From NCBI RefSeq assembly GCF_000020385.1, contig NC_010814.1:1530001-1562000 (forward strand): a stretch of DNA of 32,000 nucleotides, read 5' to 3'. The notes below the pieces were generated by a model, which was not told where the DNA came from, searched no databases, and saw only the letters and a program-made list of their open reading frames with translations. Below, piece by piece: positions 6,722 through 26,429 of this stretch. The first letter of the stretch is position 1. Each line of letters opens with the position of its first letter. Made by a program: the position numbers and the translations under genes. The stretch is from Trichlorobacter lovleyi SZ (GTDB lineage: Bacteria > Desulfobacterota > Desulfuromonadia > Geobacterales > Pseudopelobacteraceae).

Positions 6722-6868
6722 GAACAGGGCTTTTAAGAACGTTATGAGGAAGGCCGGATATAAGGCGCGCGGAGCACAGTGGCCGAGACATAACAAACAG
6801 TTAGGCGAGGGAGCGAGCACCGCGCAACGCAGTAGACGGCCTCCGGAATAGTTTTTCAAAGCCCTGTT
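6722..6868. repeat. 147-nt intergenic element bounded by a perfect 11-bp inverted repeat
   Basis: aacagggcttt (6722-6732) is the exact reverse complement of aaagccctgtt (6858-6868). An inner aggccg / cggcct pairing is also present. The element lies between the ABC-operon end and the secretin start. Confidence 0.4.
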
Positions 6869-7865
6869 AACCGCCCAGCCTGAAATTGGCGGTCAGCATC
6901 CGGTAGGAAACAAGGGCGGTGAACAGCAGGTAGCAGGCCAGCGACAGCAGGACCAGCCGTTGTTGCAGGCGGGACAGGTAGGGGGCCAGGCTGGGGCGTC
7001 TCCTGAACGGCATCAGCAGGCCGATGCTGCTGCCGCTGATCATGCCCCCCAAAAGCGTGGCGTAGAGCAGGTAACCGATATAGCCGTACTCTTGCTGCAG
7101 GATACAGAAGGGACAGTGGTGGGTGGGCAGTTCATAGTAATAGAGCCCGATAAATGAGATCAGGGCTGCCACGGAGACCACAAAGGCAAACGCGGAAAGC
7201 GCAGCATAGAGGTAGCCGCCGGTCCCTTTCAGATAGAGCCGGATGCCGCAGCAGGCGAGTACAGCCATGGTGCTGAAAAAGAGCGGCCGCATGATCCGGT
7301 ACGGCAGACCGGCCAGCTCTCCGGCGATGCTCGGCTTGTCGCTGCCGAACAGGCTGCCGCAGCAGGAGGTGATCATGTCCCCTTTAAGGTGCATGAAATA
7401 GTTGAACTGCAGCACGGTCTCAGCCAGTACCAGCAGCACCAGGCCCAGCAACAGAACGTATTTGGGCTTGATCAGCGGGTAGTCATAACCTCTGGTATCG
7501 GCGTGGTTGACAATCAGCCAGCAGCCTGCCAGCAGGCAGTTGATCAGTTTCAGGATCAGGGTCGGATAGCCGTAGCTGTTGACCTGCAGGGTGCCGGCCG
7601 CGCACATGGCGCCGGTAAACAGGATGTGCAGACCATCGGCGGTGTAGAGGTAGAGGAACAGGGAGATGGTCTGAAACAGCAGGGCGTAGCTCATGATCGT
7701 GGCGATCAGGTAAGTTCGCCGTTCAAGATTCAGCTGCAGTTCACTGCCGCTGGCAAGATCCCAGTTCTTCAGGATCCGGATGCCAAACCAGCCGGCATAG
7801 AGCAGCAGGCCGCTGACAATCAGCGAGGCGGTCATCAGCGCCAGTATGGCCGGGTGCTGGATCAC
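6867..7865 (-). CDS. Uncharacterised polytopic membrane protein (~9 predicted TM segments) with conserved-looking Cys motifs; last gene of the TonB/NosL/ABC operon
   Basis: 332-aa hydrophobic ORF. Its start overlaps the upstream stop by 4 nt (ATGA-type coupling at 7862-7865). Motifs: MCAAGT, SCCGS, CCG and HHCPFCILQQEY. Confidence 0.8.
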   Translation of the reverse strand: MIQHPAILALMTASLIVSGLLLYAGWFGIRILKNWDLASGSELQLNLERRTYLIATIMSYALLFQTISLFLYLYTADGLHILFTGAMCAAGTLQVNSYGYPTLILKLINCLLAGCWLIVNHADTRGYDYPLIKPKYVLLLGLVLLVLAETVLQFNYFMHLKGDMITSCCGSLFGSDKPSIAGELAGLPYRIMRPLFFSTMAVLACCGIRLYLKGTGGYLYAALSAFAFVVSVAALISFIGLYYYELPTHHCPFCILQQEYGYIGYLLYATLLGGMISGSSIGLLMPFRRRPSLAPYLSRLQQRLVLLSLACYLLFTALVSYRMLTANFRLGG

Positions 7866-8590
7866 GGCAACAGTTCCTGCCGGACAATCCGGCCATCACG
7901 CATCTCCAGCACCTGGTCTGCCAATGGCGAACTGTAGACAATCGGGTCATGGCTGGCGATCAGTACGGTCTTGCCACTGTCTTTCAGCTGGCCGATGCTC
8001 TCCATGAATGCTTGAGAAAGTTGACTGTCCAGGTGGGCGGTCGGCTCATCGGCAATAATGGCGATCGGGTTGTTGATCAGGGCGCGGGCAATGGCAACCC
8101 GCTGCAGTTCCCCGCCGGAGAGCCATTCCACCGGCGAGTTACGATGACGCAGCAGATCAAACTGTTCCATCAGCCCCAGTGCCCGCTGCTTGACCACCGG
8201 CTGCTGTTCGCCGGTGGGGTAGGCCGGCAGCATGATGTTCTGCAGGGCGCTGATCCCCTTGATCAGGTTAAACTGCTGAAAGATGAAACCAAAGGTGGAA
8301 CGGCGGATCTCGGTCAGGAACCGCTCCGGCAGGCTGGAACTGTCAAACCCCTCAGCTGACTCGCTTGCCTGAAAGAAGCTGGTCTCTACCCCCTGCAGCA
8401 TGATCCGCCCCGAACTTGGTCTGGTCATGCAGCCGATCAAGGCCAGCAGGGTGGTCTTGCCTGATCCGCTGGGGCCTTTCAGGATCGTCATGCTGCTGCG
8501 TGTAATGGTCAGGCTCACGTTATCCACCGCGGTAAAGCTGGTGGCCGGGCCGATGGCGAAGTTTTTGGTGACCTGGTTCAGTGCAATCAT
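7862..8590 (-). CDS. ABC transporter ATP-binding protein (MacB/LolD-like)
   Basis: Walker A GPSGSGKTT, signature LSGGELQR, Walker B IIADEPT, H-loop ASHD. Confidence 0.95.
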   Translation of the reverse strand: MIALNQVTKNFAIGPATSFTAVDNVSLTITRSSMTILKGPSGSGKTTLLALIGCMTRPSSGRIMLQGVETSFFQASESAEGFDSSSLPERFLTEIRRSTFGFIFQQFNLIKGISALQNIMLPAYPTGEQQPVVKQRALGLMEQFDLLRHRNSPVEWLSGGELQRVAIARALINNPIAIIADEPTAHLDSQLSQAFMESIGQLKDSGKTVLIASHDPIVYSSPLADQVLEMRDGRIVRQELLP

Positions 8591-8592: not shown

Positions 8593-9729
8593 TTATGACC
8601 TCATGGCTGCATCAGGGGCAATGGTGGCTGCCAGCCAGGCAGGGATAATGGTGGCCGCGGTGTAGGGCAGCACTGCAAGCACAAACAGCACCGAAAGCTG
8701 ATAGCCGTCAACAGCCGGCACCAGTTTGAACTGCGGGTACAGGATGGCCCAGCCTTTCAGGGCATGGGAGAACAGGGCGGCTGAGGAAAAGAAGACATGC
8801 AGGTAGGCCAGCAGTACACCGGCCAGGAAGGCGCTCAGCGAGATCACGGCTCCTTCCCAGAACTTCAGCAGCAGGACATCACCGGTCTCCCAGCCGATTG
8901 ACTTGAGGATGCCGATCTCCTTGCGCTCCTCTGCCGAGAGGCCGCTGGCCTTGTCCCAGGCAAAGATCACAAAGGAGAGCACTGCCGCTGCCAGGATTAC
9001 CACCATCATCCCGCCTCGCCAGTCAAACAGCGAATCATAGGTCCGCAACAGCTCGCTCTTCAGAATCGGGCGGGTGTCGGGAAACTGCTCAACAATCTTA
9101 TTGGCCACGGTCACCAGCTCACGGGGGTTGGCAACGGTCACTGCCAGGTCAGTGGCAACATCCTGCGGCATCCTGAACATGGTATGAAAATCCTCAGCTG
9201 CCATCAACACCAGATCAGCTGCCACCAGCTCCGAATGCTGCGGCAGGATACCGCTGACGGTCAGGAGCAGCGGCTTACCGCTATAGGAACGGAAGGTCAC
9301 CAGATCATCGGTCTTGATCCGCAGGTTTCCGGCAACGCCGCTGCCGATCATGATCGAACCGGGGGGGGGAGGCGCTGTATCCGGCACCAGCAGGGTGTAA
9401 TTGGCCTGAAAGACCGGGTCGTAGTAGTAGCCCCACAGGCGCGGCACCACCGCCGATACCCCGCGGATAGCGCCGATTTTCTCTGCATAGCCGACCGGTA
9501 TCAGGTCGTGGCGGCCGGCAATCATCCGCTGCACCACCATGTCGGGTGCCTCGGCCAGCAGCAGGGCCGCTTCCCGTTTCAGGGCCTGCACAAAAAAGAT
9601 CAGAGATGCAATCACAAAGATGATCAGGGTGTAGACCAGAAACAGGGAGATGTTTTTGGCCTTCCTCCGCATAAGTGAGGAGAGGGCAAAATCAAGGATA
9701 TTGCGGTGGCGGTTAAGGGCGTGGTGCAT
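8593..9729 (-). CDS. ABC transporter permease, FtsX/MacB-type (N-terminal TM, periplasmic domain, three C-terminal TMs)
   Basis: 378 aa. N-terminus ...FALSSLMRRKAKNISLFLV is typical of FtsX-family permeases. The C-terminal three-TM FtsX-like block includes ERKEIGILKSIGW. There is a 2-nt gap to the ATPase gene. Confidence 0.9.
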   Translation of the reverse strand: MHHALNRHRNILDFALSSLMRRKAKNISLFLVYTLIIFVIASLIFFVQALKREAALLLAEAPDMVVQRMIAGRHDLIPVGYAEKIGAIRGVSAVVPRLWGYYYDPVFQANYTLLVPDTAPPPPGSIMIGSGVAGNLRIKTDDLVTFRSYSGKPLLLTVSGILPQHSELVAADLVLMAAEDFHTMFRMPQDVATDLAVTVANPRELVTVANKIVEQFPDTRPILKSELLRTYDSLFDWRGGMMVVILAAAVLSFVIFAWDKASGLSAEERKEIGILKSIGWETGDVLLLKFWEGAVISLSAFLAGVLLAYLHVFFSSAALFSHALKGWAILYPQFKLVPAVDGYQLSVLFVLAVLPYTAATIIPAWLAATIAPDAAMRS

Positions 9730-10036
9730 AGGACCTCTGCAGGGTTGCGGGTGGTGTCACCAGTGAGCCGGATGGAAAATGCTCCAGGGCGGTCGGATGA
9801 TCCTGAAATGGCGCGTGCAGATCAGCCATGGCGGGATGACGGGTATAGCGGGCCTCGGTAAACAGGCAGAGATCGGTCAGGCGTAACCGGCGCACCAGTT
9901 GGGCCCGTTCCTGCAGCTCCGCGTTACGGGCGGTCCTGCTGCTGTGTGAGTGAATTCCCATCAGCAGCAGGACCGCCGTGCCGGTTGCGATCAGCAGTAT
10001 GAAGCCGGTGGAAGGGCGCATGGCTGCTCCGGTCAT
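9713..10036 (-). CDS. Small membrane-anchored hypothetical protein
   Basis: 107-aa ORF with one N-terminal TM (GFILLIATGTAVLLLMG). ATGA overlap with the upstream NosL stop and a 17-nt overlap with the permease start. No family recognised. Confidence 0.5.
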   Translation of the reverse strand: MTGAAMRPSTGFILLIATGTAVLLLMGIHSHSSRTARNAELQERAQLVRRLRLTDLCLFTEARYTRHPAMADLHAPFQDHPTALEHFPSGSLVTPPATLQRSYAPRP

Positions 10037-10503
10037 TCCAGTGTCTTCAGCAGGGCAGGAGTGATCTCATGAAACCTGACAATCCGTTTGCCTGCATGAT
10101 CTTTCAAAAACTCCTGCGCCTCGGCCAGCTTTGCAAGGGGGATCAGCTCATGCCCCATCGGTCCGTACACGTTGCTGCCGGTCACGTAGAAGGCGGTCCT
10201 GCCGTCAATCAGCTTCAGTGAATAGTAGTCCTTCACCTCAATGGCCGAGATCATGGCCGGTTTTCTGTCTGGTGCGTACCGGGACAGGTTGTTGAGGTAG
10301 CTGAACAGATCCTTGGCCCCGTCAAACCAGACTTGCCTACCGTCAGTGAATCTGATTGCAGCAGTCCAGGCCGGATACTTATGGACAAACATGCCGCAGA
10401 CCGGGCACTTGTCCTTTGGCCCCGGAGCTTGTGCTGCCAGAGTGACGGCGCTGTTCAGCCAGATGCAGGCAGTGACAGCAAACAGGAGCAGATAGCGGTT
10501 CAT
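10033..10503 (-). CDS. nosL: NosL-family (copper-chaperone-like) periplasmic/lipoprotein
   Basis: 156 aa with a signal peptide, the CPVCGM motif and NosL-like downstream conservation (FDGAKDLFSY..., GPMGHELIP). The symbol is used in the family sense only; no nosZ is present in the window. Confidence 0.8.
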   Translation of the reverse strand: MNRYLLLFAVTACIWLNSAVTLAAQAPGPKDKCPVCGMFVHKYPAWTAAIRFTDGRQVWFDGAKDLFSYLNNLSRYAPDRKPAMISAIEVKDYYSLKLIDGRTAFYVTGSNVYGPMGHELIPLAKLAEAQEFLKDHAGKRIVRFHEITPALLKTLE

Positions 10504-10571: not shown

Positions 10572-11084
10572 CTAGTGATGACCGTCGTGCTTCATCTTCA
10601 TCATTTTGCGGCGTTCACGGATCATTCTGGTGTCATTGTACATATCTTCGTAGGCTGCCTTGATGGCGTCATCAAAGCTGCCCAGAGTCCCCTTGTGCGC
10701 CTTTATAAATGCCTCGGCATCCGCCTTGCTGGCAAAGGCCCACTTGGCCCGGGAGGTCATGACCCCCATCCTGTCACCGCCGATTACCCAGTGGGCGGTC
10801 TCTGCATCAATCAGCTTTTGGGTGGTGAAGTCCCCCACCTTGATGGAGGTCGGCATCTTGTCAATATTGTTGGCCAGTTCTACTGCCATGCAATGCAGGC
10901 TGCAGGTGCCGGTTGAACTGCCGTCCTGATAGGTCACCAGCATCCGGCTGTGGCTGAATCTGGTGCGGTCCATGCCGCAGTACTTACAGCTGTCCGGGCC
11001 TTCAACCTTGTCAGTGGCAGTCACCAGGGCAGCCGTTGTCAGTAAAAGGGTCAGGGTAGCCAGAAACTTCAGTAGGTTTTTCAT
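10572..11084 (-). CDS. Second NosL-like protein with His/Met-rich C-terminal tail
   Basis: Start moved to MKNLLKFLATL (ATG 11084), with AGGAGA 7 nt upstream. Contains a CKYCGM motif, CSLHC, and the tail RRKMMKMKHDGHH. Confidence 0.8.
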   Translation of the reverse strand: MKNLLKFLATLTLLLTTAALVTATDKVEGPDSCKYCGMDRTRFSHSRMLVTYQDGSSTGTCSLHCMAVELANNIDKMPTSIKVGDFTTQKLIDAETAHWVIGGDRMGVMTSRAKWAFASKADAEAFIKAHKGTLGSFDDAIKAAYEDMYNDTRMIRERRKMMKMKHDGHH

Positions 11085-11146
11085 TGTCTGTTCTCCTGTC
11101 TGGAATATGTGTAACGCGGTTTTTGCCTGCTGTCCATTGCAGCCCA

Positions 11147-13153
11147 CTAGAATTTATAGGCCATGGTCAGGTAGACGTTCCGTCCGTTTTCCGGAACGCG
11201 GTAGCCGACACCGCTGACAAAGGGGTCACGCAGATAAGACAGGTGGCTGTAGTACTGGGTGTCCAGAATGTTGTTGATGCCGCCGGTCACGGAGAACCCT
11301 TTGTACTGATAGCCTGCCTTCAGGTCAGTGGTTACCCACCCGGCAGTCTTTTGTTCGTTCAGGCTGCTGTCAATGCGATCCTGTTCGCGGCTGAGGGTCT
11401 CAAGCAGTTCGGCAAAGAAGCTGCCGTTGTCATAGCGGATGGAGATGGTGCCTTTCAGGGGCGGCATCTCGGACAGCGGGCGATTGCCGCTGATATTTCG
11501 CCCTTCGGTGTAGGAAAGGGTGCCCCTCAGAAACAGGTCGGCCGGCAATGAAACCTGGCTACCCAGTTCGGCACCCCAGATGCTGGCATGGATATTCTGA
11601 TAGCTCTTCAGGGTAGCGGAGGCCTGGTAGAAGTTCACGTAATCCTGCAGGTCGCTGTAAAAGATCGAGGCATTGACATAAAAACGATCCGTTGCGTACT
11701 TGGCTCCAAGGTCAGCCTGATGGTTGACGGTTGCCTTGAGGCCCTGGTTGCCGCGCCAGGCCGGGTTCCCCGGCAGATCAAGAAACAGTTCCTGCTGGTC
11801 GGGGGTGCGGGTGCCCCGTCCCAGGCCGGTGAAGATCACCAGTTCCTTGAAGGGGGTGTAGTTCAGCTGCAGGTTTGCGCTGATGGTGCTGAATTCCTTT
11901 GAACTGCCGGCAGTCACCATGGTGTTGGCTCTGTCTGCCTTGGCCCGGGTCAGATCGCCACGTACGCCGCCGGTCAGGCTTAGTTTGCCGCCAAGCGGCA
12001 GGGTATACTCACCGAACAGGCCGAAGTTTTCAATCGTCACATCCGGGATCATGGCAAGGTCGCGGTAGTTAAAATACATGGCCCGGCGATTGGTGGCATC
12101 CCAGTTGCGGTTGTAGTAGTCCAGCCCGCTCTTCAGACTGCCCGGTCCGAGCTTCAGCTCTGCCTGCAGTTTTGCTCCATAGGTCTGGGTGGAGGCATCG
12201 GTCTGCATGGAATAGAACCGTGGTGATGTGCTGGAGCTGAAGCGGCTGCGGTCATCCATCAGGTGTTCAACCCGGTCCCAGTAGACCTGCAGCTTCAGAT
12301 CCTGCAGCAGTGCCGAGAGGTTCTGAATCCGGTAGCTCCAGTTCATACGGTCGGTCCTGTCGTAGTCGGCATCCATCTTCAGGTAGGGGTAGAGGACATG
12401 GTCCGCATCCTGATAGGTATAGCTGAGCTCCGTGCGTGAATTGGCAGTCGGGTTAAGCCCCAGCTTGCCCCAGCCGGTGTTGATCTCGTAGGCCTTGGAG
12501 TCAATGGCGGTGTTCTTGTAACGGTTCGGGCTGGTTGCGGGATAGATCTGGGTCAGCAGCTTGCCGTTGCCGGACTGGGGGACATCGGAATATTTGTAGG
12601 CGTAGCCCATCAGGGCATCATAGCGCTCTGTGCCATAGGATGCGGTGGCCGCAGCATTGGTGCCGTGCCAGTCGCCGTATCCCAGGCTGAGCTCACCGCC
12701 AAATCCCTTGCCCGGCCGTTTGGTCTGGGCGTCAATCAGACCCCCCAGGCCACCGGGGTTGGAGAGATCATAGGGGCCCTTGATGATCCTGACCTGCTCA
12801 ATCTCGGCAAAATCATAGTGGAACGACGGCGGGTCCATTCGGGAGGGGCAGGCGCCATGCAGGCGGACGCCATCCACCAGGACGTTGATATTGTCCTTCT
12901 GAAAGCCGCGCAGCACCACATCATTGGCAATTGCCCCCTTGTGGACAATGTTGATTCCTTCCACCTGTTTCAGGGCCTCACCCATATCCCTGGCTGGACT
13001 TTCACGAACTTCCCGGACAGAAAGACTCTCTTCCTTCGGTGATTCCTTGTCGGCGCGGACAATGATTTCATCAAGCAGCAGATGTTCGGCACGGGCTGTC
13101 TGGGCTGTCAGTGTCAGCAGCAGCGCCAGCAGCGAAAGCTGTTGTACGGTCAT
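11147..13153 (-). CDS. TonB-dependent outer-membrane receptor
   Basis: 668 aa. Signal peptide, then a plug region (DEIIVRA...VEGINIV...LRGF), a long beta-barrel, and a C-terminus ending ...YLTMAYKF. GGAGGA RBS. Confidence 0.95.
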   Translation of the reverse strand: MTVQQLSLLALLLTLTAQTARAEHLLLDEIIVRADKESPKEESLSVREVRESPARDMGEALKQVEGINIVHKGAIANDVVLRGFQKDNINVLVDGVRLHGACPSRMDPPSFHYDFAEIEQVRIIKGPYDLSNPGGLGGLIDAQTKRPGKGFGGELSLGYGDWHGTNAAATASYGTERYDALMGYAYKYSDVPQSGNGKLLTQIYPATSPNRYKNTAIDSKAYEINTGWGKLGLNPTANSRTELSYTYQDADHVLYPYLKMDADYDRTDRMNWSYRIQNLSALLQDLKLQVYWDRVEHLMDDRSRFSSSTSPRFYSMQTDASTQTYGAKLQAELKLGPGSLKSGLDYYNRNWDATNRRAMYFNYRDLAMIPDVTIENFGLFGEYTLPLGGKLSLTGGVRGDLTRAKADRANTMVTAGSSKEFSTISANLQLNYTPFKELVIFTGLGRGTRTPDQQELFLDLPGNPAWRGNQGLKATVNHQADLGAKYATDRFYVNASIFYSDLQDYVNFYQASATLKSYQNIHASIWGAELGSQVSLPADLFLRGTLSYTEGRNISGNRPLSEMPPLKGTISIRYDNGSFFAELLETLSREQDRIDSSLNEQKTAGWVTTDLKAGYQYKGFSVTGGINNILDTQYYSHLSYLRDPFVSGVGYRVPENGRNVYLTMAYKF

Positions 13154-13221
13154 GGCAGTAGTCCTCCATAGCGTTGTCAGTCGTAAGGATCAAATGTCGA
13201 TTACGGCGCTGATTGTCTGGA

Positions 13222-13791
13222 TCAGACAGGCTTTGGAGGGGGGAGCAACGGCCTGGATGAGGGCGAGTGCAGAGTGCTGACGGGGGAGGGTGGATAGGGT
13301 GATTTTTCAGGCGGCACAATGACCACCCGGTAGATAAACGGCATGCCTTCATTGCCCTGGCTATTAAGCAGTGCGGACTGGCTGCTGTCACCGCAGGGGC
13401 AGCCGCAGCTGAGAACCGTCTCTGCAGCCTGTGGTGCGGGCAGTTCGGCCTGCCGGGTAGTGATGGTTTCTTCCAGTACGGCGTGGACCGATTCGGCGGA
13501 CAGCGTGGTGTGACAGCAATCAGCCGTGTTGGCGGCAGATTCCGGAGGACGGTTTTCCGGCTGCTTTTTCTTCCAGCAACAGCAGGTGCGATTCAATTGA
13601 CTCTGCAGGGAACAGCCGTCCCGCGTGCAGTCTCCGCTGCAGGCAACCCGGCCGTCGTGGGCATGCTGATGCGGTTGGAGCGCCAGTGAGGGCAACGGTC
13701 CCGCTGCAATCAGCAGGTAGATGGCGGTCATCAGGGCGGCAATGCCCCGTCGCAGCGGTCTCAGAGAGGTATGTGCGGGTGTCGGTGGCAT
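13222..13791 (-). CDS. Cys/His-rich secreted or membrane-anchored hypothetical protein; first gene of the operon
   Basis: I prefer ATG 13791 (MPPTPAHTSL...), with AGGAG 7 nt upstream, over the track's TTG at 13824. One TM/signal segment (IAALMTAIYLLIAAGPL). Motifs HQHAHD, CSGDCTRDGC, CCCW, DCCH and CGCPCG, followed by a Pro-rich tail. Confidence 0.65.
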   Translation of the reverse strand: MPPTPAHTSLRPLRRGIAALMTAIYLLIAAGPLPSLALQPHQHAHDGRVACSGDCTRDGCSLQSQLNRTCCCWKKKQPENRPPESAANTADCCHTTLSAESVHAVLEETITTRQAELPAPQAAETVLSCGCPCGDSSQSALLNSQGNEGMPFIYRVVIVPPEKSPYPPSPVSTLHSPSSRPLLPPPKPV

Positions 13792-13819
13792 AAGGGCTCC
13801 TGATTGCTTGTCTCTCTTT

Positions 13820-13835
13820 ATCAAGAACCGTGCCG
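13820..13835 (-). promoter_or_regulatory. Sigma-54-like -24/-12 element upstream of the Cys-rich/TonB/NosL/ABC operon
   Basis: The minus strand reads CGGCACG-GTTC-TTGAT. The GG-to-TTG spacing matches TGGCACG-N4-TTGCW, but -12 has GA instead of GC. It ends about 28 nt upstream of ATG 13791, leaving room for a short leader with AGGAG. It is part of a 19-mer repeated at 17032..17050. Confidence 0.5.
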
Positions 13836-18331: not shown

Positions 18332-18355
18332 CCGTTGTCCGAACGGAGTGTCCCC

Positions 18356-18937: not shown

Positions 18938-20625
18938 CACTACGTACGAAACTGCCGGCAGAACAGGTCTTAATGGTGCTGTTGAGTATAGCTCTCTGTC
19001 TTGCCCTGGGCGCAGCTGCCTGGGCTGCCCCTTCAGACGAAACCATGCGGTTCGGGGAGCAGATGTACCGCAAAGGGCTGCTCCCCTCCGGGGCTCCCAT
19101 CAAGGCCTATGTCAGCGGCGATGTGCCGGTGGACGGCACATCGTTCACCTGCGTCAGTTGCCATCTGCGCAGCGGACTCGGCTCTATTGAAGGGGAGGTC
19201 ATCACGCTACCGACCAACGGGAGGATCCTGTATCAGCCGAGAAGGCCGTTTATCCCCGGCTCCGAGTTTGTTCCTTCCTACTCCAACTATGCAAAATACC
19301 TGCCGGAGCGTCCTGCCTATACCGACGATTCGCTGGCTGCGCTGATCCTGACCGGTATTGACCCCACCGGCCGGTCGGTTCTGAAGGTCATGCCCCGTTA
19401 CGACCTGGGCGACAAGGATATGGCGATTATGATCAGCTATCTGAAATCACTTTCTGATCAGCCGCCTCCCGGCGTGACCAAAGAAGAGATCAGGTTTGCC
19501 ACGGTCATTGTTGAAGGGACTGACCCGGTTGCGGTGCAGTCGATGCTGGCCCCCCTGCAGTTCAGTATTGACCGCAAGAACAGCCTGGCTACCGCCGCAG
19601 TGAAAAATCATCGTGTGGCGCGGATGGGCTACAACATGCTGGGAGATCTTTCCGCCCTCAAATTTTCACTGTCACGCTGGACGCTCAAGGGGGCTCCGGC
19701 AACCTGGCTGTCTCAGCTGGAAGAATACTACCGCAAGGAGCCGGTCTTTGCCTTGCTGGGTGGTATCTCGGAAGGGGAGTGGGAGCCGGTGCACCGCTTC
19801 TGCGAAGAGAAAAAGATCCCCAACCTGTTTCCGGTTGTAGACTACCCGGTACTCTCGGATACAGACTGGTATACCCTCTATTTCTCGCGTGGGGTCCGCC
19901 AGGAGGGCGAAGCTGCGGCCCGCTATCTGCACGGCATGGCCGAGCTGTTTAAAGGCAGGCCGGTACTGCAGCTGTACCGGGCCGGTCGCAAAGGGCAGGC
20001 CCTGGCAGCAGGATTCAGGGAGTCCTGGAAGACTGCCGGTGGTGGTGCGATAACAGAGGTCCGTCTGCCTGCCAATGAAAAGCTGACGGCAAAAAAGGTA
20101 CGGCAACTGGTTAACCGGAAAAATCCGGCAGCCCTGGTTCTTTGGGATGATGCAGCGTCACTGCCGGCACTGTCAGGGCTGGCAGCGCAGAAAAAGCGGC
20201 CCGGTCTGGTCCTTGCCTCCGGCACCTATCTGGGCAAGGCGCTGTGGACGATCCCGGAAGAATTGCGAGCTCTGCTCTATCTGACCTACCCCTATCGCCT
20301 GCCCCAGGAGGACAGCCGCTTTGACGTCAATGTCAAGCGGGTGCTGCAGGGTAGACCACTTGAACTGTATGAACAGAGGATCGTCAGGCAGTCCTATCTT
20401 ACCGGCGAAGTGCTTGGCAAGGCGTTGATGATGATGCGCGGCGAATATTACCGCGATTACCTGTATGATGTGATCGGTATGATGTCGGACATGCACTACC
20501 CCCTGTATGAACGGGTCAGTTTCGGGCCGGGCCAGCGCTATGCCTCCAAGGGCTCCTATATTGTGCAGTTGGGCAGTGGCAGGAATCCCGTGCTCGAACG
20601 CCGCAGTGAATGGGTAATACCGTGA
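18934..20625 (+). CDS. Fusion protein: monoheme cytochrome c domain plus type-1 periplasmic solute-binding (LivK-like) domain
   Basis: ATGA overlap with the SCO1 stop. Signal peptide. A single CVSCH heme motif with a candidate axial Met (KVMPRY). The C-terminal ~380 aa resemble branched-chain amino-acid type binding proteins (alternating beta-alpha pattern, KKIPNLFPV...). Confidence 0.8.
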   Translation: MTLRTKLPAEQVLMVLLSIALCLALGAAAWAAPSDETMRFGEQMYRKGLLPSGAPIKAYVSGDVPVDGTSFTCVSCHLRSGLGSIEGEVITLPTNGRILYQPRRPFIPGSEFVPSYSNYAKYLPERPAYTDDSLAALILTGIDPTGRSVLKVMPRYDLGDKDMAIMISYLKSLSDQPPPGVTKEEIRFATVIVEGTDPVAVQSMLAPLQFSIDRKNSLATAAVKNHRVARMGYNMLGDLSALKFSLSRWTLKGAPATWLSQLEEYYRKEPVFALLGGISEGEWEPVHRFCEEKKIPNLFPVVDYPVLSDTDWYTLYFSRGVRQEGEAAARYLHGMAELFKGRPVLQLYRAGRKGQALAAGFRESWKTAGGGAITEVRLPANEKLTAKKVRQLVNRKNPAALVLWDDAASLPALSGLAAQKKRPGLVLASGTYLGKALWTIPEELRALLYLTYPYRLPQEDSRFDVNVKRVLQGRPLELYEQRIVRQSYLTGEVLGKALMMMRGEYYRDYLYDVIGMMSDMHYPLYERVSFGPGQRYASKGSYIVQLGSGRNPVLERRSEWVIP

Positions 20626-20642
20626 AAAGAAAAGAGGATATT

Positions 20643-20993
20643 ATGATCAGACAAGGCATCCTGGCACTGTTGGCTCTGTTTCTGTTGCTGGCGCCTGCTG
20701 CAGATCTGTTGGCTGCCGCTGCAGATGTGACGATCTACATCGTGAGCGATTATCGTTATCTGCCGGGTAAGGCAAAAGGCGACCCGGTAATGGGACAGTC
20801 TCTGTGCGGTACCCGCTGTAATGCCCTTTCAACCAATTATCTGAATATTGTCGAGCCTGGCGGTTGGCGTCTGATCAAAGTTGCCGGCGGACGCGTATTG
20901 ACCGTACCACTCAATAATCCTTTCATGGGGGGGGATTGCGTCTGTGTCGTGGACGAATACATGGTGAAGGTCGATCATCTCAACAAACCGTAG
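20643..20993 (+). CDS. Small secreted hypothetical protein with four Cys
   Basis: Start moved to MIRQGILALLALFLLLAPA (AGAGGA RBS). 116 aa. Cys positions: CGTRC and GGDCVCV. No family recognised. Confidence 0.6.
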   Translation: MIRQGILALLALFLLLAPAADLLAAAADVTIYIVSDYRYLPGKAKGDPVMGQSLCGTRCNALSTNYLNIVEPGGWRLIKVAGGRVLTVPLNNPFMGGDCVCVVDEYMVKVDHLNKP

Positions 20994-21040
20994 TTTTTTC
21001 TCAGTCCTTCCGGATTTCCCACCCCAGTCTCACCTCCGTC

Positions 21041-21081
21041 GCACTATGAGACAGATACAAATCGTATCTGTCTCATAGTGC
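21041..21081. promoter_or_regulatory. 41-nt perfect hairpin/palindrome (18-bp arms, 5-nt loop) carrying TGAGACA...TGTCTCA; terminator of the upstream operon and/or UAS for the downstream sigma-54 promoter
   Basis: gcactatgagacagatac (21041-21058) is the exact reverse complement of gtatctgtctcatagtgc (21064-21081). Its centre lies about 90 nt upstream of the GG of the 21151 element. Confidence 0.6.
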
Positions 21082-21150: not shown

Positions 21151-21166
21151 CGGCATGCTCTTTGCT
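21151..21166 (+). promoter_or_regulatory. Sigma-54 promoter candidate upstream of the small-protein / multicopper-oxidase pair
   Basis: CGGCATG-CTCT-TTGCT shows the correct GG-N10-GC geometry against TGGCACG-N4-TTGCW. It lies about 125 nt upstream of ATG 21292. Confidence 0.6.
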
Positions 21167-21291
21167 CGGTAGTAAATAAGTCAAGTTCTATGCTGCTGAA
21201 ACCGTTGGTAAAATAATAATTTTTTAATGTTGTTTGAAAGGCTGCCTGAACCGGATACCCATCGCTCGGATCAATGAAAGGAGCATGCATC

Positions 21292-21555
21292 ATGAAAATC
21301 CCGACAACACTCGTAACTGGAGTACTGATGGCCGCGCTGCTCGCTGTGACGGCATCGGCAGAAGCCCAGCTGCAAAAGCGTCAGCCGGTGCAGTTGAATC
21401 CGGCGGTAAACAGCAAGGTGCCGCAGGCCCAGAAGGCCACCGTGCAAAAGCGTGAGCTGGCACGACAACAGCGTGACAAGAAGCTGAAGGTGAGGGCAGC
21501 TAACACGCAGAGAAAAGGCGGTCCGACCTCGCTTCCGAAACCTGTGCATCGGTAG
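21292..21555 (+). CDS. Small secreted, highly basic Lys/Gln/Arg-rich hypothetical protein
   Basis: Start moved to MKIPTTLVTGVLMAALLAVTASAEA (AAGGAG 8 nt upstream). The mature part is low-complexity (QKRQPVQ...KKLKVRAANTQRKGG). No family recognised. Confidence 0.55.
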   Translation: MKIPTTLVTGVLMAALLAVTASAEAQLQKRQPVQLNPAVNSKVPQAQKATVQKRELARQQRDKKLKVRAANTQRKGGPTSLPKPVHR

Positions 21556-21623: not shown

Positions 21624-24600
21624 ATGAACAAGCGAACATTACGAAGTCGAATGACAGCCCTGCTGTCCGGCTTGGCCCTGATTATGGGGCTGGGTACGGC
21701 GCAGGCCTACCTGAGCCCGGATTATTCGAATCCGGCCTATGCTCCGGGAGGGGCAACGCCCTTTGTGATCGGGCCGGGAAATACCCCGGATTACCTGACC
21801 ACCCCCAACTGGGCCTACACCCCCCCGATCCGCAAGTTTGTCGATACCCTGCCGGGACTGGGTGCCGCAAACGTCAACAACCTGGGACAGTATATCCCGG
21901 TTGCAGTGCCGGATATCGTGACCTATCCCGGTTCCGACTACTACGAGATAGAGCTGCGTGAGTTTTCGGAGAAGGTGCATTCCGATCTGCCACCTACCAC
22001 CATGCGGGCCTATCGTCAGGTAAATGCCGGTACGGTCACGACATCCTGTACCGATCCGGCACTCAGTCAGCCCAATCCCTGTACCGAGGCCAACAACACC
22101 GCACAGGTTGAAGCCAACCCGCGCCAGTTCGGACCGGTCATCGTTGCCCAGAAAGACCGGCCGGTACGGATCAAGTTCATCAACAGCCTGCCGACCGGTT
22201 CCGGGGGTGACCTGTTCATCCCGGTCGACCAGACCATCATGGGGGCAGGCCCCTTCCAGATTGATTACGATCCGGTCACTAAGCAGCCGATTCAGGTTAC
22301 CTCCGGCACCTTTAGCCAGAACCGTGCAGAACTGCACCTGCATGGTGGTCGCACTCCCTGGATCAGTGACGGTACCCCCCACCAGTGGATTACCCCTGCG
22401 GGGGAGGTAACCAGTTATCCCACCGGTGTCAGTATGACCAACGTGCCGGATATGCCTGACCCCGGTCCAGGCGCCCAGACCTACTACTATACCAACCAGC
22501 AAAGTTCCCGCCTGATGTTCTACCACGACCACAGCTGGGGTATTACCCGACTTAACGTCTATGTGGGCGGCGCTGCCGGCTATGTTATCCGTGATGCTGT
22601 AGAACAGCAGCTGATTGCCGACGGCAAAATCCCTGCTGAAGAGATTCCGTTGATCATTCAGGACAAGACCTTTGTGGATGGCGACCCGGCATCGCCGACC
22701 TATGTGCTGAAGACCGACCCGACCTGGAAATGGGGCACCGGTACTATCGGCAGTAACGGCTTCCGTATCCCCCAGAGCGGTGATCTGTGGTGGCCTCATA
22801 TCTATATGCCGGCCCAGAACCCCTTTGATATCACCGGTATCGCTCCGATGGGGCGTTGGGCCTATGGTCCCTATTTCTGGCCGGCCACCCCTAACCCGTA
22901 TCAACCGATTCCCAACCCCTACTATAGCCCGGACTGCGTGCCCGGCGGTGATCCTGCAACAACCCCCGGACTTTTGGGTGGCCCCTATGGCGACTTCTGC
23001 CAACCACCTGAAATTCCTGCAACGCCTAACCCTTCCTGGGGCGCTGAAGCCTTTATGGATACCCCGACGATTAACGGTACCGCCTATCCGGTGCTGACGG
23101 TTGAGCCGAAGGCCTACCGCTTCCGCATTCTGAATGCGGCCCATGACCGTTTTGTAAACCTGCAGTTGTATAAAGCGGACCCGGCCCCGGCGCCTCTGGA
23201 TTACAGCGGTGCATTTCCCCCCTCCTGTACAAGCTATACGGCACCGGGCTATGGTGGATTCAGCGGCATCTGTGCCAGCAATACAGAAGTCAAAATGGTA
23301 CCTGCTCAACCGGGTGGTGTCGGCAAACCAGCCACCTGGCCGGAAGACGGCCGTCCTGGTGGCGTGCCTGACTGGAACACCGCCGGTCCCAACTGGATCA
23401 TGATCGGCAGTGAAGGCGGTTTCCTGCCCAGGCCGGTAGTGTTGCCGCCGCAACCGCTTAACTGGAATGCCGATGTGACCACCTTTAACGCAGGTAACGT
23501 CAACACCGGTTCACTGATCCTTGCCCCGGCAGAGCGGGCAGATGTTATTGTTGATTTTTCCGGTATCCCTTCGGGTACCACCCTGATCCTGTATAACGAT
23601 GCCCCGGCACCATGGCCGGCCCTTGACCCCCACTATGATTACTATACCGGTGCCCCGGACAACCGTGCCATGGGTGGTGCTGATACCACGCCGATCGGTT
23701 TTGGTCCCAACACCCGTACCCTGATGCAGATCAAGGTGCAGGGCACCCCTGCAGCTACCTTTAACGTGGCAGCACTGAACGCCGCCTTTACACCGTCTAC
23801 CCCCGCTCTTGGCGTATTCCGGCAGTCGCAGGAGTCTCTGGTTGTGGGGCAGGGCAACATGAACCCCACCGGCGATCCTGCCTACTATGAGGCCTTTGCC
23901 TTTGACGGCGTTGCCTATGACGCGCTTAACACCATTTACGGTACCGCCTTTGCCACCACCTTCCCCAACTGGGGGGTGTCGCGGATCAATGACAAGGAGA
24001 TCAGCTTCAAGACCATCAACCCTGACGGCACTGTCAACCCGACGGTTCAGACGGTTACCATGAAGCTTAAGGCCATTCAGGATGAACAGGGTGAAACCTT
24101 TGACGACTACGGCAGGATGCGGGCCGCCCTGGGGCTGACCCTGTCCAACCCGGCCGCCGGCCAGGTGAACTTCATTGTCCAGACCTACAGCGACCCCTCA
24201 ACAGAGGTGCTGGCCGAGGAAGGTATTCAGGTCTGGAAGATTACCCACAACGGTGTGGACACTCACCCGATTCACTTCCACCTGTTTGATGTGCAGATCC
24301 TGAACCGGGTAGGCTGGGACGGCTTCATCCGTCTGCCCGACCCAACCGAACTGGGCTGGAAAGAAACCGTCCGGGTCAGCCCGCTGGAAGACACCATCGT
24401 TGCCGTGCGCCCGGTCAAACCAATGCTGCCGTTCGGTATTCCGAACAGTGTACGTCCACTTAATCCGGCCACCCCGCTGGGCGATGCGACCGAGCTTTCC
24501 ATGATAGATCCAACCACCGGTCAAGCCTGGGGCACCCCCAACGTTAACAGGATTCTCAACCTCGGTTGGGAGTATGTCTGGCATTGTCACATCCTGAGTC

Positions 24601-26429
24601 ACGAAGAAAACGACATGATGCGGCCGATTTCGTACAATCCGGGGGTCACCATTCCGGATGCACCCACCGCTCTGGCAACCAACGCCTTATTCATTGACGG
24701 TAATGTTACCCTGACCTGGGTTGACCCGACTCCCAAGGCTGCCTCTACAACCATGGGCAACCCCAAGAACGAGATCAACTTCATTATTGAACGTTGTTCC
24801 GGTCTTGACTGCAGCAACTTCGTAGCGGTCGGCACGGCCCTGGCCAATGCCACCAGCTTTACAGACACAACCGTAACAGCTGGTACGCAGTATCGCTATG
24901 CCGTTGCAGCCTACAACGCAGCAGGCACCTCAACTCGATCAAATATTATTAGTGTAACCGCAGTGCAGGCCCCAACCGTAGACTTGACAAGCCCAACAAA
25001 CGGCACCGTGTATTGGCCGGGAACAACTATCCCCTTGGCTGCCACTGCTACAGCGCCAAATGGATCAACCATTACCAAGGTTGAGTTTTATGACGGCACG
25101 ACACTGCTGAGTACAGATACCAGTTCCCCTTATTCGTACAACTGGGCAACAGCAACCTCAGGCAGCCATAGCTTGACCGCCAAGGCCTATGCAAGTAACG
25201 GGGCGGTGGTAACGTCAAGTGCGGTTGCTATATCGTTAACAGCTCCTGTTAGTAGTGCTACGCTTAGTGCTACCCCTTCTAGTCCTCAGACAGTTGGCGT
25301 TGCCCAGGTAGTCTTTAATGCGACAGCCAGCGGTGGAAGTGGTTCGTATGAGTACAAATTTATGCAGAAGATTGCAGGTGTTTGGACAACAGTGCAGGAT
25401 TATGGTGCGGCTTCTTCGTATACTTGGAATTCGTCTTTACAACCCACAGGTACATATGGTTTCCAAGTTTATGTACGCAATGCTGGTGCAACTAATGCCT
25501 ATGATGTGGCAAAAGCGATGGGCTATACCATTAATGCAACAGCAGTTAGTGGTGCTACGCTTAGTGCTACCCCTTCTAGTCCTCAGACAGTTGGCGTTGC
25601 CCAGGTAGTCTTTAATGCGACAGCCAGCGGTGGAAGTGGTTCGTATGAGTACAAATTTATGCAGAAGATTGCAGGTGTTTGGACAACAGTGCAGGATTAT
25701 GGTGCGGCTTCTTCGTATACTTGGAATTCGTCTTTACAACCCACAGGTACATATGGTTTCCAAGTTTATGTACGCAATGCTGGTGCAACTAATGCCTATG
25801 ATGTGGCAAAAGCGATGGGCTATACCATTAATGCAACAGCAGTTAGTGGTGCTACGCTTAGTGCTACCCCTTCTAGTCCTCAGACAGTTGGCGTTGCCCA
25901 GGTAGTCTTTAATGCGACAGCCAGCGGTGGAAGTGGTTCGTATGAGTACAAATTTATGCAGAAGATTGCAGGTGTTTGGACAACAGTGCAGGATTATGGT
26001 GCGGCTTCTTCGTATACTTGGAATTCGTCTTTACAACCCACAGGTACATATGGTTTCCAAGTTTATGTACGCAATGCTGGTGCAACTAATGCCTATGATG
26101 TGGCAAAAGCGATGGGCTATACCATTAATGCAACAGCAGTTAGTGGTGCTACGCTTAGTGCTACCCCTTCTAGTCCTCAGACAGTTGGCGTTGCCCAGGT
26201 AGTCTTTAATGCGACAGCCAGCGGTGGAAGTGGTTCGTATGAGTACAAATTTATGCAGAAGATTGCAGGTGTTTGGACAACAGTGCAGGATTATGGTGCG
26301 GCTTCTTCGTATACTTGGAATTCGTCTTTACAACCCACAGGTACATATGGTTTCCAAGTTTATGTACGCAATGCTGGTGCAACTAATGCCTATGATGTGG
26401 CAAAAGCGATGGGCTATACCATTCAATAA
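21624..26429 (+). CDS. Giant secreted multicopper oxidase (Geobacter OmpB-like) with FN3, Ig-like and four identical C-terminal Y_Y_Y-like repeat domains
   Basis: GGAGG RBS and a signal peptide. The four canonical MCO copper motifs are present: HLHGG, YHDHSWG, HPIHFHLFD, WHCHILSHEENDMM. An FN3-like block (LTWVDPTP...TQYRYAVAAYNAAGTS), an Ig-like block (KVEFYDGTTLLSTDTSSPYSYNW), then 4 x 99 aa repeats (SGSYEYKFMQKIAGVWTTVQDY...). Confidence 0.95.
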   Translation: MNKRTLRSRMTALLSGLALIMGLGTAQAYLSPDYSNPAYAPGGATPFVIGPGNTPDYLTTPNWAYTPPIRKFVDTLPGLGAANVNNLGQYIPVAVPDIVTYPGSDYYEIELREFSEKVHSDLPPTTMRAYRQVNAGTVTTSCTDPALSQPNPCTEANNTAQVEANPRQFGPVIVAQKDRPVRIKFINSLPTGSGGDLFIPVDQTIMGAGPFQIDYDPVTKQPIQVTSGTFSQNRAELHLHGGRTPWISDGTPHQWITPAGEVTSYPTGVSMTNVPDMPDPGPGAQTYYYTNQQSSRLMFYHDHSWGITRLNVYVGGAAGYVIRDAVEQQLIADGKIPAEEIPLIIQDKTFVDGDPASPTYVLKTDPTWKWGTGTIGSNGFRIPQSGDLWWPHIYMPAQNPFDITGIAPMGRWAYGPYFWPATPNPYQPIPNPYYSPDCVPGGDPATTPGLLGGPYGDFCQPPEIPATPNPSWGAEAFMDTPTINGTAYPVLTVEPKAYRFRILNAAHDRFVNLQLYKADPAPAPLDYSGAFPPSCTSYTAPGYGGFSGICASNTEVKMVPAQPGGVGKPATWPEDGRPGGVPDWNTAGPNWIMIGSEGGFLPRPVVLPPQPLNWNADVTTFNAGNVNTGSLILAPAERADVIVDFSGIPSGTTLILYNDAPAPWPALDPHYDYYTGAPDNRAMGGADTTPIGFGPNTRTLMQIKVQGTPAATFNVAALNAAFTPSTPALGVFRQSQESLVVGQGNMNPTGDPAYYEAFAFDGVAYDALNTIYGTAFATTFPNWGVSRINDKEISFKTINPDGTVNPTVQTVTMKLKAIQDEQGETFDDYGRMRAALGLTLSNPAAGQVNFIVQTYSDPSTEVLAEEGIQVWKITHNGVDTHPIHFHLFDVQILNRVGWDGFIRLPDPTELGWKETVRVSPLEDTIVAVRPVKPMLPFGIPNSVRPLNPATPLGDATELSMIDPTTGQAWGTPNVNRILNLGWEYVWHCHILSHEENDMMRPISYNPGVTIPDAPTALATNALFIDGNVTLTWVDPTPKAASTTMGNPKNEINFIIERCSGLDCSNFVAVGTALANATSFTDTTVTAGTQYRYAVAAYNAAGTSTRSNIISVTAVQAPTVDLTSPTNGTVYWPGTTIPLAATATAPNGSTITKVEFYDGTTLLSTDTSSPYSYNWATATSGSHSLTAKAYASNGAVVTSSAVAISLTAPVSSATLSATPSSPQTVGVAQVVFNATASGGSGSYEYKFMQKIAGVWTTVQDYGAASSYTWNSSLQPTGTYGFQVYVRNAGATNAYDVAKAMGYTINATAVSGATLSATPSSPQTVGVAQVVFNATASGGSGSYEYKFMQKIAGVWTTVQDYGAASSYTWNSSLQPTGTYGFQVYVRNAGATNAYDVAKAMGYTINATAVSGATLSATPSSPQTVGVAQVVFNATASGGSGSYEYKFMQKIAGVWTTVQDYGAASSYTWNSSLQPTGTYGFQVYVRNAGATNAYDVAKAMGYTINATAVSGATLSATPSSPQTVGVAQVVFNATASGGSGSYEYKFMQKIAGVWTTVQDYGAASSYTWNSSLQPTGTYGFQVYVRNAGATNAYDVAKAMGYTIQ
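25248..26424 (+). repeat. Tandem repeat, ~3.96 copies of a 297-bp unit, nucleotide-identical between copies apart from the first few bases of copy 1
   Basis: gttagt(a/g)gtgctacgcttagtgc recurs at 25248, 25545, 25842 and 26139. I compared copies 1 and 2 base by base and found them identical. The four identical out-of-frame 96/82-aa ORFs in the track at 297-bp spacing confirm copies 3 and 4. Confidence 0.95.

Follow-up and report, generated by a model that had tools for sequence, protein, structure and literature searches.

Locus organization

Copper acquisition and the loading of copper into periplasmic and secreted enzymes of Gram-negative bacteria are poorly understood. We analysed a 32-kb stretch of Trichlorobacter lovleyi SZ (contig NC_010814.1, positions 1,530,001 to 1,562,000; the window hereafter) that carries a putative copper uptake operon, a cluster for an OmpB-type multicopper oxidase and a two-component regulator with a sigma-54 activator. 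Our explanation, which we favour with reasonable though limited confidence, is that these three modules stand under the one activator in the Trichlorobacter lineage. Motif and gene-content statements on the window refer to this stretch, and Pfam gathering scores are used as thresholds.

The minus strand from 13824 to 6867 holds the eight genes of the uptake operon, which overlap or are closely spaced in the list of open reading frames (ORFs). The plus strand carries, in this order, a double-PAS histidine kinase, an NtrC-type activator, a REC-only protein, an FKBP protein, SCO1, a protein of 563 amino acids (aa), two small secreted proteins and a 1601-aa oxidase. A secretin and a multiheme cytochrome make up the left flank, and polysaccharide synthesis genes the right flank.

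An earlier note on this DNA had described five groups of metal-related genes, and all of them lie where it placed them. Every one of its family calls agrees with Pfam and with the motifs, and a hidden Markov model test puts both NosL proteins and SCO1 above the Pfam thresholds. It had also remarked that nosZ and cox genes are missing nearby, and neither occurs in the 32-kb window. Its inventory of the gene groups stands but was incomplete; an FKBP isomerase gene at 17669-18331 had been overlooked, and two small conserved genes before the oxidase, at 20610-20993 and 21292-21555, are added here.

Copper receptor and Cys-rich leader protein

The first operon gene (13222-13824, minus strand) encodes a Cys/His-rich, membrane-anchored leader protein of 189 aa, counted from the probable ATG at 13791. 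It has no match in Pfam or NCBIfam and represents an unannotated family, whose members have an N-terminal membrane anchor, a proline-rich tail and eight invariant cysteines in the pattern C-x3-C-x4-C-x9-CCC-x19-CC. In 29 related loci a homolog is encoded upstream of the receptor, almost always directly upstream of an OprC-like one.

The second gene (11147-13153, minus strand) encodes a 668-aa TonB-dependent receptor of the OprC/NosA type with a plug (Pfam Plug, 54.5 bits) and a barrel (TonB_dep_Rec_b-barrel, 134.9 bits). Its closest solved structure is OprC (6fok; E 2.6e-40, 141.8 bits), aligned over the full length at low identity. The CPSRM and HLM motifs of the receptor align with CPNRM and HIM of OprC, whose copper ligands CxxxM and HxM have been defined crystallographically (PMC8610252).

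These ligands, C102, M106, H297 and M299 in the window protein, are kept in 52 out of 52 sequences, namely the window protein and 51 homologs from a scan of species genomes. The earlier claim that the receptor is related to copper thus agrees with a complete OprC copper site. Because OprC is the closest match and the four ligands are invariant, the sequence evidence is strong that the receptor is an importer of ionic copper of the OprC/NosA kind, found in Geobacterales and in a small number of other phyla. Its identity to the receptor of Trichlorobacter thiogenes is 91%, and to that of T. lovleyi (L137; related loci are given L numbers) 94%.

NosL and ABC transporter module

To our knowledge, NosL-NosDFY is the only worked-out periplasmic copper relay. 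A relay from NosL to NosD and NosFY is known, and for variants lacking NosZ a role in supplying other cuproenzymes has been proposed (PMC13068155). Neither nosZ nor nosDFY lies beside the NosL genes in the window or in the related loci examined. No description of a system in which NosL goes together with an FtsX-type ATP-binding cassette (ABC) transporter or with TonB was found in the literature searched.

Two NosL-like proteins follow the receptor on the minus strand. The first, NosL191, is encoded by a 191-aa ORF at 10572-11147, has its probable start at M22 (position 11084) and scores 54.5 bits against Pfam NosL with a cutoff of 24. It carries a CKYCGM motif and a TRASH-like CxxC...CxxxC pattern, which agrees with the treble-clef, TRASH-like core that NosL has in common with MerB (PMC10114901). 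The second, NosL156 (156 aa, 10033-10503), has a signal peptide and a CPVCGM motif, scores 102 bits against the same cutoff and aligns with the solved NosL structures 7og7 (CHLCGM) and 7osf (CHVCGM), CxxCGM included.

The next gene encodes a conserved single-pass protein of 107 aa (9713-10036, minus strand), which has no Pfam match; its copies in related loci, 48-85% identical, invariably separate NosL from FtsX. It is followed by a 378-aa permease of the FtsX/MacB/LolC type with a large periplasmic loop (8593-9729, minus strand; Pfam FtsX 28.5 bits with a cutoff of 25.5). Permease orthologs in L138, L139 and L142 also match MacB_PCD. The window permease reaches 42.5 bits against NCBIfam LolCE with a cutoff of 362, and its sequence has no match among solved structures.

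The 242-aa ATPase (7862-8590, minus strand; Pfam ABC_tran 90.7 bits) is of the FtsE/LolD/MacB type. Its top NCBIfam models FtsE, MacB and LolD all stay below their cutoffs, with 155.8 bits against 264.85 for FtsE and 152 against 966 for MacB. The start of the last operon gene (6867-7865, minus strand) overlaps the ATPase stop by 4 bp and encodes a 332-aa membrane protein with eight helices and Cys motifs.

This 332-aa protein belongs to an unannotated family without a Pfam match, which has more than 4000 homologs in 931 clusters at 50% identity, every one called 'hypothetical'. Its invariant residues are M87-C88, C168-C169 and H249-H250-C251-xx-C254. The AlphaFold model shows eight helices with a pLDDT of 82, and a fold search with it against the PDB returned no structural neighbour (best E 0.31, TM at most 0.3). 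Candidate likenesses to DsbB, VKOR, CcdA and CopD found no support from this empty fold search. Three Cys-bearing loops alternate with Arg/Lys-rich loops, so by the positive-inside rule the Cys loops would face the periplasm.

The module of NosL, FtsX-type ABC transporter and Cys-motif membrane protein is widespread, unannotated and new as an element, being undescribed in the literature searched.

OmpB-type oxidase cluster

The right-hand part of the locus belongs to a type already described. In Geobacter sulfurreducens, He et al. described the OmpB cluster GSU1394-1398 as related to MofA, MofB and MofC of Leptothrix, of which MofB is a prolyl isomerase (PMC5566968). OmpB is required for Fe(III) oxide reduction (PMC5566968) and is exported by the type II secretion system (PMC3543383, PMC5566968) in that organism, the only one for which a surface location and a part in Fe(III)/Mn(IV) oxide reduction are known. 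Hence, the combination of SCO1, a cytochrome/binding-protein and the oxidase, which had been put forward as new, is not so.

The 1601-aa oxidase (21624-26429, plus strand) begins with a signal peptide of the Sec type and carries Ig-like repeats, with Y_Y_Y and Big_7 domains, at its C-terminus. As had been noted, it is a multicopper oxidase: all four copper motifs are present as HLHG at residue 238, YHDH at 299, HPIHFH at 881 and HCHILSHEENDM at 987 (HxHG, HxH, HxxHxH and HCHxxxHxxxxM). It shares 70% identity with the 1303-aa G. sulfurreducens OmpB over 99% of the catalytic part (1060 residues). Judged by sequence, it is an ortholog of OmpB, and its cluster is of the OmpB/MofABC type.

The G. 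sulfurreducens locus (L001) has the order of SCO1, a 567-aa protein, a 117-aa protein, an 85-aa protein and the oxidase. Of the window neighbours, SCO1 is 68%, the 563-aa protein 72% and the 127-aa protein 60% identical to their counterparts there. The window adds a periplasmic, MofB-like prolyl isomerase of the FKBP type (17669-18331, plus strand; FKBP_N and FKBP_C), and with this gene the MofABC-like set is therefore complete.

The SCO1/SenC copper chaperone (18335-18937, plus strand; Pfam 81.2 bits) carries CTTICP at residues 83-88, and its candidate distal ligands, from a reading of the sequence only, are His153 and His165. Its gene overlaps the start of the MofC-like gene (563 aa, 18934-20625, plus strand) by 4 bp. 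The MofC-like protein has one heme site, CVSCH at residue 73, and a Peripla_BP_6 domain, and so the reported coupling of SCO1 to a fusion of cytochrome c and binding protein is real.

Two small genes intervene before the oxidase on the plus strand. One encodes a secreted 127-aa protein with four cysteines (20610-20993), of which copies with 60-66% identity occur in L001, L136 and L140. The other encodes a small basic secreted protein (21274-21555, probable ATG at 21292) directly upstream of the oxidase, and a gene of 85-98 aa is found at the same place in L001, L135, L136 and L138.

Since its signal peptide is of the Sec type and lacks a twin-arginine motif, the oxidase would have to fold and take up four coppers in the periplasm before it is secreted. 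Its C-terminal Y_Y_Y domains are encoded by four tandem repeats of 297 bp (25248-26423, plus strand) that are 99% identical in DNA. Two oxidase homologs (P0001 and P0002, 96% identical) end in Flg_new-type domains instead of Y_Y_Y repeats. The C-terminal display region thus looks hypervariable and recently amplified, or else the repeat number reflects assembly uncertainty. A terminator-like hairpin with a 10-pair stem and a following T-run lies after the oxidase gene (26454-26477, plus strand).

Regulator and predicted promoters

The kinase (13974-15557, plus strand) consists of two PAS_3 domains, HisKA and HATPase_c without a membrane segment, and the activator (15545-16891, plus strand) of REC, Sigma54_activat and HTH_8. 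Both are as the earlier note had called them, a soluble PAS kinase and an NtrC-type activator. A single-domain response regulator (REC, 17063-17515, plus strand; Response_reg 83.8 bits) comes next; its listed ORF starts at 16940, and the conserved start is the ATG at 17063. Activator orthologs were found by protein search, and a metagenome scan with generic AAA+ seed peptides gave only paralogs with 31-52% identity.

The REC protein has an N-terminal tail of HTCCRPDCLC (HxCCxxxCxC), which is kept in Trichlorobacter and L004 only, that is, in the lineages whose regulon includes copper modules. We speculate that this Cys-rich tail is a candidate Cu(I)-binding element.

The palindrome GTCTCA-N3-TGAGAC, allowing up to one mismatch, has exactly three matches in the 32 kb, at 13900, 16899 and 21038, with a mean of 0.01 in shuffled sequences. 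The first predicted activator site, GTCTTATTTTGAGAC (13900-13914), lies 73 bp upstream of the -24 element of the operon and 60 bp before the kinase start. The second, GTCTCATCTTGAGAT (16899-16913), lies 130 bp from the -24 element of REC and overlaps a second inverted copy at 16889-16904. The third, GTCGCACTATGAGAC (21038-21052), lies 107 bp from that of the oxidase, in a perfect palindrome with 18-nt arms (21041-21081). As for reading this long palindrome as a terminator, its T-run is 14 nt from the stem and its arms hold activator half-sites, so the role of a binding site is favoured.

The pattern GGCAYGNTNNTTGMT likewise has exactly three matches in the window, again with a shuffle mean of 0.01. 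A -24/-12 element, GGCACGGTTCTTGAT, before the uptake operon (13820-13834, minus strand) is kept in L003, L004, L135 and L137. An identical copy before the REC gene (17036-17050, plus strand) is kept in the same four loci and in L143, L144 and L145. The third element, GGCATGCTCTTTGCT, stands before the small gene and the oxidase (21152-21166, plus strand), and GG-N10-GC elements are found at the same place in L137, L003 and L004. The -24 part is GGCA in all three, and a 19-nt sequence, CAACGGCACGGTTCTTGAT, is identical before the operon and before the REC gene.

Each pair of palindrome and -24/-12 element is correctly spaced and oriented. In L135, T. lovleyi (L137), T. thiogenes (L003) and L004, all three positions retain both elements, although the DNA around them has diverged. 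The loci L143, L144 and L145, with activators 62-64% identical to that of the window, have a perfect or near-perfect palindrome, then GGCAYGATTCTTGA, and the REC start 12-15 nt further on. The promoter-like pattern and the shared upstream motif, proposed earlier for the operon, the REC gene and the oxidase, are thus borne out as sequence features: they stand far above the shuffled expectation, are kept in several lineages and go with the presence of the activator.

The palindrome occurs in all eight other loci examined that have an ortholog of the activator, and in none of eleven that lack one. As its presence tracks the activator ortholog and its absence the lack of one, the palindrome is probably the activator binding site. 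The region upstream of G. sulfurreducens ompB has neither the palindrome nor the -24/-12 element, and therefore the regulon cannot be extended to G. sulfurreducens.

These intergenic regions yielded no sigma-70-like promoter. A generic scan with the sigma-54 consensus (TGGCAC-N5-TTGC, two mismatches) gave 51 matches against 47 expected and is uninformative, so only the shared specific pattern is significant. In L026-L028 and L051, which have no window-type activator, a canonical-looking sigma-54 element, AGGCATCATATTTGCT, lies about 150 bp upstream of the Cys-rich gene. The uptake operon may be sigma-54 dependent there under a different activator.

Distribution of the modules

The full composite of uptake operon, kinase and activator, and oxidase is restricted to the window, the metagenomic contig L135 (99% identical to the window over the left half), T. 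lovleyi, T. thiogenes and L004. Synteny across Geobacteraceae, which the earlier note had asked about, does not hold, although the full arrangement does occur beyond this genome in Trichlorobacter and one other lineage.

With the receptor as anchor, the complete uptake operon recurs in L002-L005, L008, L010, L026-L029 and L051. With the 332-aa protein as anchor, the loci read as a 133-aa gene, NosL, NosL, a 100-aa gene, FtsX, ABC and a 330-aa gene, and the receptor is absent or 5 kb away. The invariant core is one or two NosL, the protein of about 100 aa, FtsX, ABC and the protein of about 330 aa. A second frequent unit consists of the Cys-rich protein and the receptor, sometimes with one NosL.

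Copper genes meet OmpB-type oxidases in other arrangements as well. L138 and L139 contain NosL, a 99-aa gene, FtsX, ABC and a 338-aa gene, then a NarL-type two-component system, then SCO1, the MofC-like gene, a 129-aa gene, a 95-aa gene and the oxidase, with no receptor; their module proteins are only 42-59% identical to those of the window. The Elusimicrobia contig L041 (9977-16765) encodes the receptor, ExbB, ExbD, TonB and an OmpB-like oxidase of 1072 aa one after another in the same direction, and this receptor is 56% identical to the window's and keeps the copper ligands. In L024, the receptor lies within 10 kb of a MofC-like gene and an oxidase.

This recurrent linkage in L138, L139, L041 and L024 argues for a functional link between the copper genes and the OmpB-type oxidases, as far as gene order can tell. 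The co-occurrence foreseen earlier is thus found in these four further, differently arranged loci, while elsewhere the operon or the oxidase cluster stands alone.

Against T. lovleyi (L137), the identities on the left are 94% for the receptor, 91% for the kinase, 94% for the activator and 86% for REC, and on the right 68% for FKBP, 60% for SCO1, 43% for the MofC-like protein and 49% for the oxidase. The right-hand genes are nearer to G. sulfurreducens (68-72%) than to T. lovleyi (L137), which lacks the 127-aa gene. The identity falls after the REC gene; therefore, the oxidase module has been replaced by another allele, with its position beside the regulator and the uptake operon kept. A phage or mobile-element origin, raised by this module swap, was dropped, as the window contains no integrase or transposase.

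Some side observations concern the flanks. Directly downstream of the uptake operon lies a secretin (4288-6705, minus strand) with a C-terminal cohesin domain and an STN domain, a position kept in L002-L004. Further left, a 793-aa multiheme cytochrome (3879-1498, minus strand) has MG2, Fn3_assoc and CHB_HEX_C_1 domains, and a GEMM-I (cyclic di-GMP-I) riboswitch aptamer lies upstream of its gene at 4105-4181 (minus strand; 42.4 bits with a gathering score of 35).

In L143 (region 13750-15039) and L144 (region 12522-13775), the activator orthologs adjoin cohesin-domain proteins as well as a secretin and an ATPase of type II secretion, and in L027 a dockerin-bearing surface protein is encoded upstream of the uptake operon. 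These are hints of a cohesin-dockerin surface-display or secretion system tied to the same regulon.

Proposed mechanism

From the gene identities, the conservation of the copper ligands, the positions and conservation of the motifs and the linkage patterns, all established here, we infer how copper moves, what the ABC machine does and what is sensed, as follows. The OprC-type receptor would take ionic copper across the outer membrane, and the two NosL-type chaperones would bind Cu(I) in the periplasm. The MacB/LolC-type ABC pair, with the 107-aa and 332-aa proteins, could be an ATP-driven device that passes Cu(I) on, most likely by analogy with NosL-NosDFY.

Cu(I) would then be handed to SCO1 and the apo-oxidase, in the way that NosFY powers NosD for nitrous oxide reductase (PMC13068155). 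FKBP may help the oxidase to fold, and the MofC-like protein may supply or remove electrons. The copper-loaded oxidase would be secreted thereafter.

As to the regulation, the activator is predicted to bind GTCTCA-N3-TGAGAC and to fire the -24/-12 promoters of the uptake operon, the REC gene and the oxidase with sigma-54. Transcription from the REC promoter probably reads on into FKBP, SCO1 and the MofC-like gene. With one activator at three promoters, the production of the oxidase and its copper supply would therefore rise together. The shared predicted site suggests that a secreted cuproenzyme has a dedicated line of copper supply.

The oxidase half of the locus is already known. What appears new, from the sequence comparison, is the recurrent linkage of the NosL/ABC module to OmpB-type oxidases and the regulon predicted for the activator, whose promoters have unusual features.

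A bolder extension, which we offer tentatively and regard as rather unlikely, concerns the module of NosL, 100-aa protein, MacB-type ABC and 330-aa protein in general. It might be an unrecognised but widespread ATP-driven periplasmic Cu(I) relay, an analogue of NosL-NosDFY built from unrelated parts, which metallates OmpB/MofA-type oxidases. In Trichlorobacter, it would be joined with an OprC-type importer in a sigma-54 regulon, where the Cys tail of REC (HxCCxxxCxC) would be a cytoplasmic Cu(I) sensor tuning the phosphorelay.

Several points weigh against one copper regulon under the activator. In the regulator itself, the sigma-54 contact loop (residues 218-223) is GAYTSA and not GAFTGA; across 120 activator orthologs, GAYTSA occurs in 29, GAFTSA in 90 and GAFTGA in none. 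At -12, where GC is near-invariant, only the element at 21152-21166 has GC and the other two have GA. The earlier note had given TTGC as the -12 element, and at two of the three promoters it is TTGA instead. Variant contact loops can be functional (PMC6615313, PMC3105312), and the loop variant and the GA for GC at -12 may possibly co-vary between activator and promoter.

The REC gene is another such point. Its ATG follows the -12 element by only 12-15 nt in eight loci (among them the window, L003, L004, L137 and L143-L145), which therefore implies a leaderless or near-leaderless transcript. The kinase is cytoplasmic and its PAS domains suggest a redox or small-molecule signal, and that the regulon responds to copper at all is purely our inference.

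Among the structural genes, the receptor has TonB-copper (TIGR01778) as its top NCBIfam model, and its 254.7 bits are under the equivalog cutoff of 472.45. The 332-aa protein and the Cys-rich leader resemble nothing characterised, by Pfam for both and by the PDB fold search for the former. We know of no metal role for FtsX-type ABC systems. Even for OmpB, the function in vivo is not settled (PMC5566968).

Moreover, the modules are separate in most of the genomes sampled. The uptake operon occurs without the oxidase in L005, L008, L010, L026, L028, L029, L051, L141 and L142, and in L027 it has a TonB gene inserted and is flanked by housekeeping genes. The OmpB five-gene cluster is alone in G. 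sulfurreducens and in the metagenomic loci L136 and L140.

The company kept by the activator weighs in the same direction. In L145, the activator block leads directly into REC and FKBP, two small genes, an oxidase of the OmpB type and another FKBP, and in L143 FKBP and SCO1 come after the REC gene. Because of these followers, the regulator seems to belong primarily with the oxidase-maturation genes; its ancestral partner would be the block of REC and FKBP with SCO1 or oxidase, not the uptake operon, and the REC gene its ancestral target. The uptake operon appears to have been recruited into the regulon in Trichlorobacter and L004.

Alternative explanations

The main alternative, compatible with most of the data and yet in our judgement rather unlikely, is general copper supply with a redox-type signal. 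The operon would feed all periplasmic and membrane cuproenzymes, while the kinase and activator would sense a redox, oxygen or electron-acceptor signal and control OmpB in extracellular electron transfer, with the operon recruited only in this lineage. The uptake operon is indeed free-standing in at least nine loci, and the activator has REC-FKBP-SCO1 or the oxidase as its conserved partners, with cohesin proteins and genes for type II secretion in L143 and L144; the receptor is not among them. The sensor of the window kinase, a cytoplasmic double PAS, is also unlike the 626-632-aa kinases paired with the orthologous activators.

Three observations speak for the dedicated supply line instead. 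Even then, the shared site and promoter tie copper uptake and the oxidase together in this genome. Copper genes and OmpB-type oxidases are linked independently in L138, L139, L041 and L024. The Cys-rich tail of REC is found only where copper modules belong to the regulon.

Copper detoxification is improbable. The oxidase would be a cuprous oxidase like CueO or PcoA, the ABC transporter would expel or sequester periplasmic copper, the Cys-rich proteins would buffer it and the two-component system would answer its excess. As is generally known, pco/cop/cus resistance loci typically combine multicopper oxidases and periplasmic chaperones with two-component control, MacB-type ABC systems are exporters or extractors, and the many Cys-rich proteins here could sequester Cu(I).

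However, the receptor has the OprC import site and depends on TonB energy for inward transport, and a TonB gene in L027 and ExbBD-TonB in L041 are built into the operon. Genes for a CopA-type ATPase, CusCBA and PcoB/C/D are absent from the window. With an import-type receptor, TonB partners and no efflux genes, detoxification is therefore unlikely. Moreover, the regulator is an NtrC-type activator with a soluble PAS kinase and not a periplasm-sensing kinase such as CusS or CopS, and the oxidase belongs to the OmpB type, on which Fe(III) oxide reduction depends in G. sulfurreducens (PMC5566968).

The least probable is a different cargo, that is, another thiophilic metal (Zn, Ni, Co, Ag or Hg) or a metal-chelate: the receptor falls under its copper-receptor equivalog cutoff, NosL and MerB share the TRASH-like treble-clef (PMC10114901) and the Cys-rich leader could bind many soft metals, but the complete CxxxM-HxM site is invariant and copper proteins (SCO1 and the multicopper oxidase) are neighbours in several independent arrangements, which makes this cargo unlikely, and metallophore synthesis genes are absent from the window.

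The dedicated supply line under the activator thus stays our preferred explanation. The locus is a genetically tractable candidate for a complete route with importer, chaperones, ATP-driven machine, SCO1, foldase and client oxidase, in hosts that are important in metal cycling and bioelectrochemistry. It offers a precise and testable regulatory prediction of one binding site at three promoters, and the first plausible context for two unannotated families, the 332-aa membrane protein and the Cys-rich leader protein. A likely regulator of OmpB-type oxidases can also be named for several Desulfuromonadales lineages.

Comparison with known systems

The regulator shares with the NtrC family the arrangement of REC, AAA+ sigma-54 domain and Fis-type helix-turn-helix, a cognate kinase, an upstream palindrome and a -24/-12 promoter. 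It differs from the canonical members by the loop of GAYTSA or GAFTSA in place of GAFTGA throughout its ortholog family and by TTGA at -12 in two of the three promoters. Its conserved target, a REC-only gene that starts 12-15 nt past the -12 element, is a further difference.

The ABC pair resembles the type VII mechanotransducers MacB, LolCDE and FtsEX in its FtsX-domain permease with a large periplasmic loop and its FtsE/LolD/MacB-like ATPase. However, it is far under every equivalog cutoff, and its permease is without a match in solved structures. It has no adaptor, outer-membrane partner, lipoprotein or cell-division context, and its association with metal chaperones is not described for these systems in the literature searched.

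The likeness to NosL-NosDFY (PMC13068155) lies in a NosL chaperone gene beside an ABC system, with a cytoplasmic ATPase, work in the periplasm and a periplasmic multi-copper client. The window has none of NosD, NosY, NosF and NosZ, and its permease is of the FtsX/MacB type instead of the NosY type. It has in addition the 107-aa protein and the 332-aa Cys/His membrane protein, the latter with no fold match in the PDB, and its presumed client is the OmpB-type oxidase.

OprC and CrtA are the only outer-membrane copper importers studied in detail (PMC8610252, PMC12914433). The window receptor is like OprC of Pseudomonas aeruginosa and NosA of P. stutzeri in its top structure and family matches and in the fully kept CxxxM-HxM site, whereas at 254.7 bits it stays below the curated equivalog cutoff of 472.45. 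The neighbour of OprC is PA3789, a PepSY-type, reductase-like protein (PMC8610252), while the partners here are the Cys-rich protein, two NosL and the MacB-type ABC transporter. The hosts differ too, being Pseudomonas for OprC and NosA and an anaerobic member of Geobacterales for the window.

The closest known relatives are the OmpB cluster of G. sulfurreducens and the Mof cluster of Leptothrix discophora, with an oxidase 70% identical to that of the former, the order of SCO1, MofC-like gene, genes of about 120 and 90 aa and oxidase, and FKBP as MofB in mof. The window oxidase ends in four Y_Y_Y tandem repeats, in place of the other C-terminal domains in G. sulfurreducens. The ompB locus of G. 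sulfurreducens is without the FKBP gene, the kinase and activator, the receptor/NosL operon and either regulatory motif, whereas the window has them all.

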